Positions 2,995 to 54,595 of a DNA stretch of 64,000 nucleotides are shown in pieces; within the stretch, counting starts at the first letter, position 1, and every line of letters starts with the position of its first letter. The notes under the pieces were generated by a model that was not told the DNA's origin, made no database searches, and saw only the letters and a list, made by a program, of their open reading frames with translations. Origin of the DNA: Octopus vulgaris (taxonomy: Eukaryota); the NCBI GenBank assembly GCA_951406725.2, contig OX597819.1, forward strand, positions 134,292,001 through 134,356,000. The letters are read 5' to 3'. The translations under genes and the position numbers were made by a program.

Positions 2995-3117
2995 CTATTC
3001 CTTAGCAGCAACATTTATTTGCCAGCCCAAAACTTGACGATCAAATCCACATGAGAAGAGGTGGCACAAAGAGCTTTCTTCAGCCCAGGTTACGGAACAA
3101 ACCATTCGACTGTGACC
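2995..3117 (-). CDS. WDR37: Terminal coding exon of WD repeat-containing protein 37 (last WD40 repeat plus stop)
   Basis: Translates GHSRMVCSVTWAEESSLCHLFSCGFDRQVLGWQINVAAKE*, closely matching my recollection of the vertebrate WDR37 C-terminus ([35 protein letters not shown]...). It is preceded on the minus strand by a polypyrimidine tract and acceptor (tttctatttttgtttctttacag|GGT), phase 0; 123 nt = 40 aa + stop. Confidence 0.9.
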   Translation of the reverse strand, partial: GHSRMVCSVTWAEESSLCHLFSCGFDRQVLGWQINVAAKE

Positions 3118-5427
3118 CTGTAAAGAAACAAAAATAGAAAATAAGGAATATTGTAAGTACAATTCTACAATTAATAAAGTAAAATTTATTTCCAACATCA
3201 ATTAAATAATAAAAAATGTTGATTGTAGTAACAACGGCCACCAAGTTATACTCCAGAACAGCAGAAAAAAAATTTAAAACAAGTTCTAATAACTTTTTTT
3301 ATGTCCAGAAAATTCACCACAAACATTCTTGCTAGGGTAAAATTTCCTACAGCAAATTTTCCCATAAACGAGGCACATAAGCAGACTATAAACTAGAGAA
3401 CTCATTTTAAAGAAATTATCTTTCTCTAATTGGTAGATTAATTGAGGAAGTTGCAATTTTAAGAAAACAGCCTTTTTTTTTTTTGTCAGTATATTTTTTT
3501 CACAGCGAATTTCCCTACAACAAAAATGATAATGGCAAAATTTCCTACAAGCAGAACCTTTAGCAAAAAAACTGCCAGTGTAGTTTGTACAGATGGCAGT
3601 CCCAATCGACACAGGTTGAGTAAAGTTTCATCAGCCTGTTACAGAAGTAATGTTTGGATCTATATTCTTCCTCTAAAACCATAAATAAGCTATGTGAACT
3701 GGACATAAATGGGTTTGGCAAGATCTGTTGAAGGACCACTTCCTTCAAGTTACCAGGTTTTAATTGCTGTGAAATTTCTTTAAACACCAAAGCATCTCTT
3801 TTAGAAGTATTCCATTTCTTACAAAAGACTGACCTACTTAGTGTCTCTGATCTTCTGCCATTGGTTCTATTCTGACCAAACTCATTGAAGGTCAAGAAAT
3901 ATTTACTGGTATAAAACAGAAAACATTTGTTTTTTTGCTTTAAGTTTCAGTCTAAGGACTGTGGCCATGCTGGTGCATTGCCATTACTTTGCAAATTACA
4001 TGAGTAATTAAAACTATGAAAGATTAATCTAATTACTTGAAATGGGTTAAAATAAGATGAAATTTTAAAATAAAGCCGGCTATGCCAGATGGATCTCCAA
4101 TCTGCCACAAACCAATTTCTTATGCTGAGTGAAGTATTAATACTCGTAACTGCAAATAACCAAAATGATTAAAGGCTAAACAGTGACATTCACTGCAATA
4201 ATCTGTTAAGATGTGGAATTAAAATGCTGAATATTTCTTTTCTTTCAGTATATATGAAGTTTGAGTAAAGTACAAAGACTTGAATTCCGAATATTTGAAA
4301 ATAATCTGTGTCAACAGGAAAGTTTTCTTTTGAATAAATAATAATAATAATGTGAAGAGGCAAAAGTGGTAACAGTTAACTTGCTTTCATTGCCAGGAAA
4401 TAATTCGAACAAGAAATACAATTAACTTCTCTCTGGTACCAATTCAAAAGAAATGTTTGATGCATCTAAAAAAATATATAGTTTAATGTAATTGAAAAAG
4501 ACAGGACAAGTTGAATTTCACTATTCAATCAGTTTCTGTAGGAAGGGGTCAGAGCAGAAGCAGAAGATATTAAGACAACAGAAAACTTCTCAAACTATGC
4601 AAATAGAATAAATTGTGAGAAAAAGCAAAGAACAGCCATGACAAAACATTTATTTGATGTGAAAATAGTTCAATTTAAAATACTTTTTGACTAAGACCAG
4701 ATGTAATTAAATAAATGATAGAGCACATGTTAACAAAAGTCAAATATATTGAAAGTTGCTCTCCATATTACTCCTGTTGAATAGATTGAAAGTTTAAGAA
4801 TCAGATTTTAATAAACTTGTTTGAAAAGCTTTGCAAAATACTAAATAGTAATGAAAACTTTGTATTTACCTATTTTGATTTGTTTGGGTATATTCTAGAT
4901 TATATTAAAATACTTAAAGCAATAATTAGATTTTCTAATAAAGTGAAGTGTATTCTAAAACTGTTGCTGCTGAGTTCAAAGGAAACTAATAAAAGATAAT
5001 GATACTAACATAAAAACAGATTAAGAAGCCAGAGAGAAAAAAATTATCATTTTTATGGCAATTTAAAATAAAACCATTTGACTCTGATAAGCTAACACTT
5101 GAGATAGAGGGGGGGGAATGTTAAGTGAGCAGAGAAGAGGATTGACTTAAAGACTTTTTGCAGAGAAAAAGAAAAGTTTTCAACTTGAAACATAGAATTA
5201 AATTAATAGATGTTTTCTCATTATTGCAACCTAACAAGAAGTTGGACAAGAGACAGTTTGATAAAATAAAATTGTCAATAAGATATGACTAAATAATTAA
5301 TGGCATGTTGCAAGTGAATTGTATCATGTGAATATTTCCAAATTAGAATCCTAATCAAAAGGGAGAAAAACATTCTTTAGTCTAGAAGAGAAACTAATAA
5401 AACTGCTGATAAGTGTGAAATCAAGTC

Positions 5428-44540: not shown

Positions 44541-44914
44541 TATCCCCCAAGGTGATGTGGACTAAGATTCTTTACCAATAAAAATGAATTCAATAAGAAT
44601 GTTCTGTGGTTTCATTTTATTCGAGTTGCTTCAAGTAATTCCAAGATTATTACTCACTCAAAACATCCCTCACAGCAGCAGATAGAATTTCTCAACTCTG
44701 CACTCAGTCTTCATGTTTAACATTACAAACTTCCTACCATCAAAACCTTTTCATTAAAATAAAACTGTGGCATTCCTTAAACAGTTCTATTAACCAAATT
44801 TCTCAAAATCATTTATTAATCTTTAATCTACCCTAATTATGAAGGTTTTGTTTTAAAACTAAATATATAACTTCATTCTATAAAGGAAATGTGTCTACTA
44901 AACTATTTAGCTAC

Positions 44915-46404
44915 ATACCTGCTTCTCAAACGTGGCAGGCACTTCCTTTTACACCAGCTTTCTATTTTCTTCCAGTACTGTCTCAACAATGGTGCTACTC
45001 CGGAGCAGTGGAAAACTGCCAGTGTCATTCCTCTGTTCAAAAAGGGTGACCGCACATCACCTGTCAACTATCGCCCAGTCAGTCTCACTAGCTGTATTGC
45101 AAAACTGATGGAATCATGTGTCAGAGAAACACTCTGGAACTTCTGGAGCTCTCACAGTCTCATCCGACCCTCACAATATGGATTTGTCCCTAACTCCAGC
45201 TGCAGTGACCAGCTTGTCGAGTTCCTTGAGGACATTACTCAGATCACTGACAGTGGCTCATGGGTGGATGTTGTCTACCTTGACTTTGCTAAGGCTTTCA
45301 ACTCTGTGTCACACAAAAGGCTTATGGTGAAACTCTCTGCAATGGGTGTGGGGGATGACCTTTTTAACTGGTTGAAATCCTTCATCCTCAGCCGAAAGGA
45401 GGTAGTCACAGTTCTAGGACAGCACTCTACACCATATGAGATGTCATCGGGTGTACCACAGGGATCTGTCCTTGGTCCCCTCCTGTTTGTGGCATACATT
45501 AATGACATAGATGCCAATTTAAAGAATGCCACAGTATTGAAATATGCAGACGACATCAAGCTGTACCTTGAAATCAAGAGGACAGATCCTGATGTCTACA
45601 ACTCTTTCCTGCAATCAGACCTAGACATAATGCAGCAATGGATCACAGACTGGCAACTGAAACTGGCTGTGGACAAGTGTACCACCATGCATTTTGGGAG
45701 AAAAAACCCTGCGTCCACATACTCCCTCCACAACACTGATATCAAGAAATCCTCTTGCGAGCGTGACCTAGGCATCACTGTCAGCAGTGATTTGCGTTGG
45801 ACAAAGCATATCTCTAAAATTGTCAAGAAGGCCGAGGGTGTCTTGGCATCACTCAGCAAGACTTTTGTTAGCCGCTCTCCAGCCATCTATTTAAAACTGT
45901 ATACAGCTATGGTACGACCACACTTGGAATTCGCATCATCAGTTTGGAATCCCTATCTTGCTCAGAACATTGACCTCCTGGAATCTGTCCAGAGACGTGC
46001 AACCAAACGCATACCCTCCATCAGACACCTACCATATTCTGAGCGCCTTGTTTCCCTGGGCATGGATTCACTGAAGCTCCGGCGTCTGGCGACGGACTTG
46101 GTAAACACCCACAAGGTTATCAACCACCTCACCAACAACAACACTGAACACCTTTTTGATCTCCATGTGTCTAACACACGTGGACATGCCTACAAAGTCA
46201 GAAAACAGCACAGCTCCCATGACTTTCGGAAACATTTTTTCACGCTCAGGGTTGCTGAAGCGTGGAATAAACTGCCTGCATCAGTTGTTGACTGCCATGA
46301 CACTGCATCCTTTAAGGCCCTCATGCTTCCCGAAATCCGTCGAAACTACACCTGATTATATATACACTTTAGATGAGTTGTAGTGCACCTGAGCACTGTA
46401 CACA

Positions 46405-47575: not shown

Positions 47576-50500
47576 TGAAGTTAACATGAGTAAAAGCAGC
47601 AGCAAAGTACAAAGAAAAGAGAATTGGGGCAAGGATGTCACCCTGCTTGAAACCATTCTCTACTTGAATGGGTCCCGCCATGGCACCACCAACCTCCCAA
47701 GCCTCCATCCCATCATGAAATGATTTAATTATAGATACAAAGTGATCCGGACATCCAAGTTTGCCAAGTATTTTCCATAGAAAGGCCCTATTTACAGTAT
47801 CAAAGGCCTTAGTTAAATCAATGAATACCTGGACAAGATCCATATTCTGCTCATAGCACTTCTCCTGCATCTGTCTTGCTGTGAAAATTATATCCATTGT
47901 CCCTCTACCAGATCGGAAGCCACATTGAGATTCAGATAGGACATCATTTACGAGACACCCATTCAGACGGGTAAGAAGAATATTTGCCAGAACCTTGCCA
48001 GCAGCTGATAGTAGAGCAATACCTCTGTAGTTACCACACATTGTTCTGGCTCCTTTTCCTTTATATAGAGGAAGAATAATTGCATCCTTCCAGTCCTTAG
48101 GGATTGCACCATCCCTCCAGACTGCACTAATACGTTCATGAAGGGACTGTGTGATGCAATTACCACCAAATCGCAAGACCTCAGCTCAAATTCCATCCTT
48201 TCCAGGTGCCCTACCAAGATTCAATTTAATTATTGCTTCATCTATTGAGGGCGAGGAGTCTAAGGAGCCAATGATAGGTTTTTGTTTCATAGTATTAATC
48301 ACTGTTTCATCCACAACTGACTCATGGTTTAGGAGTTCAGAGAAATGTTCAATCCAGCGACCTGTGATTTCTGTTGATTTAGTAAACAGAGTGGAAGACT
48401 CCTTGGAAAGCAAAGGAGCTGATGTGGAGCTCTTAGGTCCATAAGCTCGCTTCATAAGATGGTAAAGCTTCTTGCTGTCATTTGCATCAGGAGTAGCCTG
48501 AGCATCACGAGCAAGATCCTCCCACCAAGTGTTCTGCATCTTCCTGAGAGATCACTGCAGTAATGATTTTACACTGTTATAGTGGGCAAGTGCTAGACTT
48601 CGCTGCACAGTAGACAGTTCTCTGTGCAGCAACACATTGTGGGCATGGCGCTTTACCACTAATAGTCGCTGAACCTTAGCATCATTCTCATCAAACCAGT
48701 CTCTGTGTCTGGCAGTAACATACCCCAGTGTTTTGGCTGCACATTGAACAACCTGGTCTCGAAAATCTTCCCATGCTGCAGTAGTTTCAATGCTGGACAA
48801 GCGAGTCTGAAGCTCTTTCCTAACCACATCATATACCTTGTGGACATTTAGACGGCGAGGAATGCTGACTGGTCCTCTTCTCTCTTTCGCCCTAATCACC
48901 ATTCGGAACTTTGCTCGCACCAGACTGTGGTCTGTCCAGCATTCTGATCCATGCAAGGACTTGACATTACAAATGTCATAAATGTCGCGCTTGTGGATGA
49001 TGATATAATCCAGCAAGTGCCAAACTTTGGACCTTGGATGCATCCATGTTGTGGTGTGATCACCTTTGTGCACAAAATGAGTACTTGCAATGTAAAGTCC
49101 ATGTTCTTCGCAAAGCTCCAGTAGCATGAGACCATTGCTATTCATTTTCCCTACTCCAAAACGTCTTAGAGAGTTCCATGTTTGCCAGTCTGTTCCAACT
49201 CTGGCATTAAAATCCCCCAGTAGAATGACTTTATCAGAATTGGGGATTTTTCTAAGTATGGCTCTCAGCTGGGTATAAAAGATTGTTTTATCTTCATCAC
49301 AGCTAGTCAAAGTAGGTACATAGGCACTTATTAGAGTAGCAAACCGCTTACCTTTCAAGTGCCACCGTAGGGTCATTATACGTTCATTTATAGGAACAGG
49401 GAGCTCTTCCAACTTCTTAAGGATATCAGATCGGACTACAAAACCAACACCAGCCTTTCTGTGCTCCTCCTTCTGCCTTCCTTTCCAAAAAAAGGTGTAT
49501 CTACCTCCTACTTCCTCAAGCTGACCATCACCTTCTATACGAGTGCAGCTATATCAATTTTATAATGGTTCAGCTCACGAGCAACAAGTGCAGTGCGTCT
49601 TTCAGGCCTACAATCATTCCTGTTGTCCAACAGAGTGCGCACATTCCAACATGAAATGTTTAAGTTCCATCCAGATTTTATAGATAAAAGACTCATTGTT
49701 TTTCGAGCACAGGGTGGACATCCGTCAGTTGCGCTAAACTGACCAGATATGGAAAGACAGGCAATTTTTGGTTCACCTTTTCTAGAACCTCCCCAGTCTC
49801 CAGGTGAGCAGTGCCCTCTCCAAATGGAGCTGCTCAGACACCCATGCAGCAACTGAATCTTACCGCTGTCTTGGGCAACAAGGAGACGACTTTAATATCT
49901 AGCATGGGCCGCCTACGTGCAGGTCGCTGATTACATGCTTCCAACCCGTCAGGTCTGCATGCTTCACCACCTTCCAATCGCCGCAGGACTTCCGAATAAA
50001 AAAAAAAATTAAAATATATACTAAAAATGAAGAAAATATATACTAAAAATAAGATAAATATATGTAGAATAAAAAAAAAGAGGTCGGCAATGCCTGTGCA
50101 GAGTTTTAGGTCCAATAAGGATTGCACAACACCTCATAGACCCTCTCCACTTTATTGACATTATCCAGAGACAAGCCGGAGCAAGATGTCTGGTGCCAAT
50201 ATGAGTCGTAGGCTCAGAGATGTGGGAGCGCCGTGATCTCTAGCACAAACTAAAGATCCCCAAAATGTCCAATGCCATTCCCTGCATAACTGGTTTTATA
50301 TCAGAGTGACCTTCTCCTAGAGACATGCTTTAACAAAAGCTGAGGGTCGCCTCACTCCCAGTGGTTTTTCAGCATGCCGGACACCACCCCGGAATTTCTG
50401 CGTACCTGTGCTAACATTTATTGGATGGCCGTTGACTCTCAAGAGGTCCTCCACCCTTTGATGGGTTTTTGTTTTTCATCCCGCAGGATGTCCAATAAAC

Positions 50501-50610
50501 ACCCTCCTCACAATGCAAGCTTGGTGGGGTTGCCGGTTTAGTCGCCGACGACCCGACCATGCAACAGGTTGTACTGGGTTACATGTTACCAGTAGTACTC
50601 GAAAGTGACC
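47576..50610 (-). mobile_element. RTE/BovB-like LINE, 5'-complete and 3'-truncated, disrupted ORF
   Basis: ~0.9 kb 5' UTR, then WNVRTLLD...RPERRTALVAREL, ILLGDFNARVG, TDHSLV (APE endonuclease), and GNYRGIALLS, QCGFRSGRGT, FIDLTKAFD, GFKQGDILAP (RT). It stops before YADD and has a few stops and frameshifts. Confidence 0.92.
50533..50610 (-). ncRNA. Degenerate HDV-like self-cleaving ribozyme at RTE 5' end
   Basis: Minus strand order: P1 GGTCAC, J1/2, P2 CCAGT, P3 ACA, L3 ACCTGT, P3' TGC, P1' ATGGTC, GG, P4 GTCG-TCGG-CGA, C-TAA, P2' ACCGG. One mismatch each in P1, P2 and P3. Confidence 0.65.
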
Positions 50611-50639
50611 TGACACATATATACATATATATTATGATA

Positions 50640-53174: not shown

Positions 53175-54595
53175 GTAGGCAATCAGCTATCAACAAACCC
53201 TGGGAAGAGAAGAAATTTGGGAGGCACTCAAGGACCTGCAGATTTTACCTGCAAGGCAAATGTTGGCATTGGGAAGACGGCAAAAACTGGTGGTTTGCTC
53301 ACCCAAGAACCCACAAAAACTACAGGGGCCTTAAGGAGAAAAACTTCCCTGAGGAAAGACAACAATTGTCTCCAAAGAAAAAAATATACAAAAGAAGTGT
53401 GCTCTTCAGAGGTTATGCACAAGGCAGCAGCTGAGCAAGAGTCTTTTTGTACATGGCACAGAAGATTGTACAGCAGCTGACCTGGCTACACCAAGCGCAA
53501 ACAAAGAGCCTTGCCCACCACTGCGTAAGACCACCAAAGTCAACAGACACGGGATGGCCTCCACTAACGCCTGCACAGTCGTCACACCTATACTTTTACT
53601 AAATATTGGGGGCCTGTTGCATCATAACAAGAGCAAAATTTCTTTCCTGAGAGACCTTGCTGCATGCAATCAAGCCCTATGCATAGCACTTGTGGAAACT
53701 CACCTCAGCCCAAATATAGAGGATGCAGAAGTACATGTACCAAAAGATGCCATACTGCGAACAGACAGAAGGGAAAGGAGCAATGGTGGAGTTGCTGTAT
53801 ACATCCGTGACGACCTCACACCCCAGGTCTTACAGTCATACTCAAATTCGGTATGTGACACTCTAGTTGTATACATAAGACAACATAATATAGTCATATG
53901 CAATACATTTTGCCCACCGGATGCTCCAAACCACATAGGCAAGTTTGGAGATTGCCTCACAAGAATTAAAGAAATCCTCATGAATCAGGAACACCACGTG
54001 AGAATATTTCTTATGGGTGATTTCAACTTCCCCAACGTCAAATGGCCCAAAGGCCTCATGCTCTCAGGAATGACTCATTGCAAACAAGCACCAAGTGTTA
54101 CCATGTACATATTTTGTCTTGGTATAAATGAAGGGCTACAGCAAATATTCTGTTTAATACCACAGATTTGCTTGTCTTTAACCAGTTGAGCATGTCCCTT
54201 AGTGGCTGATGATATGTGCACCTCTGATCATGAGCAGAAGTAGTAGGGGAGCATCACAGCCATGTGCTGAGAGGAATTCTCTGGGGTTTGAATAATTCAC
54301 CCCTGGGTGTTTCATTCATCATCCTTATAGAAACCTTATTCATCATATTTAAACACATCTTAAACAAATCTTTTGAGCAGGATGGGCTACTTGACCTAAA
54401 GAAAATTCTAACTGGGCCCCACCGGCAAGGTCATGCACTGTGTATGGGATCACCATGTCGTGCACATATGGTTGTGATGCATGTGCCTGATGTACCCTTA
54501 TCAAACAGGTAGTCATGATGGGTATACTGGCTTAGTATATTTGTACCCCAGTGTCACTTTGATGGCATGTGCTGCTCTCTCACTCAATAATAATA
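53175..54595 (+). mobile_element. Internally deleted LINE: CCCH-like ORF1 remnant, APE endonuclease, 3' end
   Basis: CRFYLQGKC...FAHP zinc-finger-like remnant. ORF 53554 has LLNIGGL, IALVETHL, GGVAVY and MGDFNFP. It switches abruptly at ~54090 to non-coding sequence that ends in (AAT)n. Confidence 0.75.

Follow-up and report, generated by a model that had tools for sequence, protein, structure and literature searches.

How does an RTE-type LINE lying in an octopus intron come by its 5' end, and does the RNA cut itself free? The question is raised by a minus-strand element in the 64,000-nt stretch of Octopus vulgaris DNA analysed here (the window), at whose 5' end an initial annotation had drawn an HDV-like ribozyme fold. 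Such ribozymes have been described at the 5' ends of RTE, R2, baggins and L1Tc elements (PMC6765202, PMC5786205; for R2, PMC3774820; all in excerpt).

Downstream of the region in question lie an RTE-type APE domain, frameshifted, and a truncated reverse transcriptase (Pfam APE and RVT_1), bearing out the claim that this is the 5' end of an RTE-clade LINE, and the named homologues are CFDP2-like RTE endonucleases. The family majority encodes one 1133-aa open frame, and full-length copies of ~4.2 kb close with CATCAT followed by a microsatellite, while the window copy reaches its 3' limit at 47585 without a tail. By sequence, membership in the RTE clade is supported by the single APE plus RT ORF, the microsatellite tail and the target site duplications of 10-14 bp found in one lineage that shares the 5' region (lineage E, below). 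In the 1133-aa frame the first in-frame AUG does not occur before residue 175, inside the endonuclease, and the ATG at 49693 of the window copy (region 49535-49891, minus strand) differs from the majority state. An exon at 2998-3120 matches an Octopus WDR37 at 100% identity, and the remaining WDR37 exons lie past the window on the same minus strand, so that the LINE sits in a last intron of ~61 kb, in the sense orientation that the annotation had stated. Two pieces of other LINEs lie on the opposite strand to the RTE element, a 494-aa RT frame at 44871-46355 (+) and an endonuclease frame at 53353-54189 (+), both identified with Pfam. The features discussed below are collected in Table 1.

Table 1. 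Positions of the features discussed, in window coordinates unless a copy is named; helices and folds are predicted.
Feature	Position	Strand	Description or basis
WDR37 last coding exon	2998..3123	-	penultimate coding exon just past window end
RTE LINE copy	47585..50614	-	~96% identical to family majority; frameshifted, 3'-truncated inside RT, tailless
Shared 5' head module of octopus RTE elements	50414..50614	-	~200 nt; common to three further bodies
Two downstream hairpins	50486..50526	-	compensatory changes between lineages
Core	50532..50595	-	nearly invariant; holds both rival folds; lineage-majority comparison
Hairpin A (would be J1/2-P1.2)	50596..50607	-	length-variable, covarying
First invariant base (G of GTCAGG)	50614	-	predicted cleavage or start site; copy comparison
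Drawn P1	GGTCAC 50610-50605 / ATGGTC 50560-50555	-	sequence check
Drawn P2	CCAGT 50577-50573 / ACCGG 50537-50533	-	sequence check
Drawn P3	ACA 50572-50570 / TGC 50563-50561	-	sequence check
Drawn L3, GG and C-TAA	L3 ACCTGT; GG 50554-50553; C50541-TAA	-	sequence check
Model D skeleton	50533..50614	-	script fit, predicted
Model D P1	50614-50608 / 50562-50556	-	begins at G1 with G·U wobble
Model D P2	50592-50588 / 50537-50533	-	CUGGU/ACYGG
Model D P3	50587-50585 / 50565-50563	-	AAC/GUU
Model D L3	50584-50566	-	19 nt
Model D remainder	GG at 50554; P4; C50541-UAA	-	C precedes GG
Three-way junction	50565..50612	-	rival ground state; minimum-energy fold
Junction helices	CAGGT/ACCTG 50612-50608 / 50569-50565; hairpin A; TACTGG/CCAGTA 50594-50589 / 50577-50572	-
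RTE-2_OV ORF	L265:1302-4628	-	GC-rich, 55%

The 5' region is a head shared between elements. Four bodies carry it, namely the window LINE, the published LINE RTE-2_OV, an older lineage and a non-coding element of ~557 nt, and they part ways at nt ~190-205. Most head copies sit on the ~557-nt element: a 20-mer from the 3' end of the window family occurs in 328 copies as against ~2000 heads, and of the 30 head copies that come first along contig 1 not one tracks the window LINE closely past nt ~201, while 25 aligned to the ~557-nt element with its RTE-like tail. That tail matches the 3' end of the window family at 78% over 40 nt. The last ~50 nt of the same element recur on another short repeat, the two together giving 3550 matches. 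For comparison we used the majorities of four lineages: A, the window family; B, an older lineage with a different body, whose diagnostic 20-mer has 54 exact copies that include some point mutants of A; C, an older relative of the window LINE at ~85%; and E, the youngest. The majority of B reads TGTT in one set and TGTC in another, so B is mixed. A candidate fifth lineage (ACCTGAT; 24 matches, control 8) turned out to consist of scattered point changes plus chance matches. By its sequence, lineage E is RTE-2_OV of O. vulgaris: the four primers given in the available text of PMC9115989 have perfect matches in 18-27 of the 40 E copies and in none of 40 family-A copies. RTE-2_OV thus has the same head as the window LINE (nt 1-194 are 87% identical), whereas the window body belongs to another lineage, with 47% protein identity and an ORF GC content of 45% versus 55%.

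Sequence look-ups returned nothing resembling the head, and pattern searches for outgroup heads gave two matches in viral contigs, both unrelated, and one in metagenomes, unrelated and bacterial-looking; the corresponding protein search gave none in viral contigs and, in prokaryote genomes, one contig that lacks its 5' end. The literature searched, in which subscription journals were mostly uncovered, held no description of the shared head, of its presence on RTE-2_OV, of an octopus RTE ribozyme or of L3 insertions. Contigs of sequencing runs X15-X17, presumed to be RNA, cover the head in a form from which start and strand are not readable. Run X20 yielded a high-depth contig with a more diverged head carrying apparently two 1-base insertions inside the core near 50563-50564; a motif taken from it is absent in this genome. 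Three decayed head copies on contig 1 (5.3-5.7 Mb) have identical flanks and are part of a duplicated segment.

The segments that the annotation had assigned to an HDV-like fold are all present, in order, on the minus strand between 50610 and 50533, and that part of its reading stands; the HDV interpretation as drawn does not. Its three stem mismatches had been read as neutral decay of a once perfect fold, yet all three are the family majority among the 30 best copies aligned. Specifically, the 5' strand of P3 reads ACA in 1962 copies genome-wide versus the "repaired" GCA in 52, and the 52 are dispersed across lineages, so the mismatch is fixed family-wide and is not decay. Within the first 130 nt the changes private to the window copy fall at 50596, 50514, 50512 and 50488 (50604 is a common variant), and none of these lies inside the core; the fold did not decay here. 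The family consensus restores the pairing of neither P1 nor P3. The drawn P3 has two of three pairs in A and C and one of three in B, across the 54 copies of its 20-mer, and in E, in which TAC replaces the P3 strand in 38 of 40 copies. The drawn P1 forms 4-5 of its six pairs in the lineage majorities, 2-3 of them G·U, and half of its 5' strand lies in hairpin A, which has compensatory changes of its own. In the computed ensemble P1, P2 and P3 each have a probability of ~0, and L3 opens with an A where the U of the U20·G25 pair would stand. A strict HDV descriptor gave no match; a loose descriptor matching the drawn fold found five cores in the window, the drawn one included, versus 1.3 per shuffled window (12 shuffles), and when the first 205 nt of the element were shuffled it matched 40 times in 3000. 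Searching Rfam for HDV, CPEB3, drz, twister, hatchet, pistol and hammerhead gave nothing at E<=10, either for the window copy or for an intact RTE-2_OV copy. Hence the HDV-like letters (GG, the short hairpin and the invariant C-UAA) were correctly noticed, but the fold as drawn is wrong and, by the sequence checks that the annotation itself had set out, largely refuted.

The exact start of the element had been placed at 50610. Homology continues past this base up to GTCAGG/TGTCAGG, with the G in 55 and the T in 59 of 61 head copies, so the family ends 4-5 nt further upstream, at G50614/T50615, and in three of the four sequencing runs compared (X3, X5 and X20) loose ends lie at 50615. Lineage E, whose insertions are more often hosted by unique DNA, has the G equivalent to 50614 in 40 of 40 copies, a T at -1 in 34 of 40 versus 40% T in the flank, and a GG start (an extra G) in just 3 of 40. 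When these 40 copies were sorted by their target site duplications, 10 had no 3' end, 7 had no duplication and 12 with short or low-complexity repeats were dropped, leaving 11 clear cases. Five of the 11 abut or overlap G50614, six leave 3-7 extra bases upstream of it, ending in T, and none starts at 50610. With no long upstream carry-over in the 11 resolved copies, something must make a precise 5' end. The uniform G, the rarity of GG and the 0-7 extra nucleotides would fit an uncapped cut end. We consider it likely that the shared head sets the start point of the RNA, and it may do so by self-cleavage in an unusual fold.

What the head conserves is a core set among variable hairpins. Across the four lineage majorities 6 of 71 columns vary in the core plus the first 7 nt versus 35 of 97 downstream (p = 2e-5), a contrast biased by the picking of the lineages by their core patterns. 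Hairpin A reads CACT/AGTG, CTCC/GGAG or a 10-bp version in different lineages, and the stems downstream comprise a CACCARG hairpin and one in which GGGTG/CACCC alternates with GGGTT/AACCC. At the level of sequence comparison, such compensatory changes in three peripheral hairpins show selection on RNA shape. The private changes of the window copy fall in these elements, a G>A at 50596 disrupting its hairpin A pair and those at 50514, 50512 and 50488 lying in the downstream hairpins. Within the core, C50541-TAA is invariant in all four majorities and has the C-N-A-A form of an HDV J4/2, in which the catalytic C follows P4; the lowest-energy fold, however, has C50541 in a pair. It should be noted that many alternative pairings arise because GGT/ACC words repeat.

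We now put forward a hypothetical HDV-type skeleton in a different register (model D in Table 1). Its descriptor was built post hoc; it fits the window copy as well as 29 of 40 copies from the family and 32 of 40 from RTE-2_OV, and it occurs in 5 of 6000 dinucleotide and 6 of 5000 trinucleotide shuffles (~0.1%, to be read with its post hoc origin in mind). Its G1 coincides with the measured boundary, P2-P3 and P3-P1' are directly adjacent, and all pairs of P2 are kept in the four lineages. Lineages A, C and E fit; a change in E turns a U·G of P1 into U-A, that in B breaks one P3 pair (to A·C, 54 copies), and one in C turns a pair of the L3 hairpin into G·A. The variable covarying hairpin A falls where HDV-like ribozymes have P1.2 (PMC4908430). 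P1 is weak, at about -2.5 kcal/mol with one G·A mismatch, and the skeleton lies ~14-19 kcal/mol above the minimum-energy fold, tertiary energy not being counted. HDV-like ribozymes are described as requiring U20·G25 and a CC-GG P1.1 (PMC3386971, PMC6326823, in excerpt), and an excerpt of the former terms U20·G25 essential, with cleavage more than 200-fold slower for non-GU pairs. In model D, as in the drawn fold, position 20 is an A, and L3 has no 5' CC for P1.1; when all registers with an L3 of 6-9 nt were searched, none with a Watson-Crick P1.1 was valid in all four lineages. R2 ribozymes, as far as the available parts of PMC3774820 describe them, tolerate mismatches in P1-P3, a J1/4 of 0-2 nt and unusual L3 spacing. 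By the tested signature the head is not a member of the HDV-like family, but it may work like one.

The explanation that we tentatively place first is that the head frees the element from read-through transcripts by cleaving itself before G50614 in the model D fold. We rank it so because published accounts have RTE elements depending on ribozymes at their 5' ends, HDV-like or twister (PMC6765202, PMC8501958, PMC5786205, in the portions available), and because the head is selected as RNA. Specifically, in a read-through transcript the head would fold as model D, with hairpin A forming J1/2 and P2 stacked on P3, and C50541 as the putative catalytic base would promote a cut just before G50614. 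Template switching could have brought the head into different RTE lineages, favoured by the defined 5' end that the head supplies. The core is intact in the window copy, so that the last intron of WDR37 would be the substrate of any activity of this kind. A wider form of this proposal, to which we give less credence, is a portable self-cleaving head with a non-canonical core, be it an HDV skeleton that has a 19-nt L3 but lacks U20·G25 or a three-way junction of a new class. Distant RTE lineages would have exchanged this head, RTE-2_OV would have captured it, and its ~2000 sites would include sense intronic copies such as that in WDR37.

Close to self-cleavage through model D in plausibility is a non-catalytic head, an internal Pol II promoter joined to a structured RNA for the RTE protein or the translation machinery, in which the uniform G would be the transcription start and the head would be swapped as L1 lineages swap promoters. 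The three-way junction agrees with this: together with a 3' rod it has the lowest energy of all folds for the A and C majorities and lies near the minimum for E, it is broken by none of the lineage changes, and it arises in 34-38 of 5000 shuffles. The lack of known ribozyme matches in the Rfam search points the same way, as do the pyrimidine-purine step that the frequent T at -1 (34 of 40) implies for E copies and the proposal that portable mollusc LINE heads are promoters (PMC4758252, in excerpt). A promoter alone, however, needs no RNA shape, yet compensatory changes are present; an extra G derived from a cap is rare (3 of 40), and an HDV-like skeleton at the exact boundary would have to be a coincidence.

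Two further explanations appear unlikely, and about equally so. The head might cleave at G1 through the three-way junction as an undescribed class of ribozyme, with invariant stems and loops held within covarying arms and a closing helix that has G1 at its foot, paired as G·U or as G-C depending on the lineage. Inspection of this fold identified no catalytic motif, and twister, hatchet, pistol and twister-sister readings, made by eye against consensus sequences, were rejected as they put the cut inside the element. Alternatively, the core might descend from an HDV-like ribozyme that once folded in the drawn register, lost its activity before the lineages split and has since been kept for another purpose. 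Its L3-like ACCUGU, the directly adjacent GG and C-UAA are correctly ordered, P2 in that register is perfect in B and E, and the drawn descriptor is infrequent in shuffles; against it, an intact version was found neither in the lineages compared nor by the outgroup search, and the GCA copies are dispersed over lineages. That the family has an active HDV-like ribozyme starting with G1 at 50610, and that decay has affected this copy only, is very improbable despite the order of its segments and the stem mismatches possible in R2 ribozymes (PMC3774820, in excerpt), given mismatches fixed family-wide, a boundary 4 nt upstream, a P3 with one pair of three in two lineages and helices of ensemble probability ~0.

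Compared with the HDV-like ribozymes of LINEs, known to us for published RTE sequences from second-hand descriptions, the octopus head has the same position at an RTE 5' end, the G start, GG, a short P4 and C-UAA, and in model D a J1/2 hairpin. It differs in that the canonical P3, L3 and P1.1 combination occurs in no octopus register, in the 19-nt L3 of model D without U20·G25 and in a stronger alternative fold. Pr77 of ingi/L1Tc and the ~70-bp LP-SINE head of molluscs are likewise single modules found on different LINEs and short non-coding elements, as described in the available parts of PMC4758252; by those descriptions the octopus head is longer (~200 nt) and has covarying hairpins. Bipartite non-autonomous derivatives of RTE elements (PMC5786205, in excerpt) resemble the ~557-nt element in joining an RTE 5' part to an RTE-like tail, but the middle of the octopus element is unlike the window family or RTE-2_OV, and its partner LINE was not found. 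The T-variant twister of the RTE element Perere-3 (PMC8501958, in excerpt) similarly sets an RTE 5' end beside the target site duplication, unlike the octopus head, which has no Rfam twister match and a twister-like UAA ~26 nt inside the element.

The octopus head is a candidate for how RTE-2_OV gets its 5' end, a point that the RTE-2_OV paper (PMC9115989), in the portions available, does not address; the word "ribozyme" does not occur in its main text. RTE-2_OV is described there as a brain-expressed LINE proposed to be active in octopus neurons, and whether the head cleaves or serves as a promoter decides whether that expression comes from its own promoter or from host read-through. Should the head cleave, HDV-like activity does not require the core signature now accepted for it, and ribozymes of this kind escape standard descriptors; should it not, the head clearly exemplifies swapping among RTE lineages and warns that HDV-like letters at LINE ends can mislead.

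The same source, in excerpt, states that a full-length genomic copy of RTE-2_OV was not found in its short-read assembly. In the present assembly three copies (L265, L280 and L283) are full-length with the 1109-aa ORF intact, beginning after ~600 nt, and two of them, L265 and L283, have clear target site duplications. Relatives of the protein occur at 70-84% identity in other assemblies, at 74% in the gastropod Nucella lapillus and at 66% in a frog, a sequence pattern that hints at horizontal arrival of RTE-2_OV followed by capture of a resident head. One RTE-2_OV copy, on contig 5 near 210 kb, breaks after ~30 nt into (TTAGGG)n close to the contig start, a junction that looks like a telomere-healed break.
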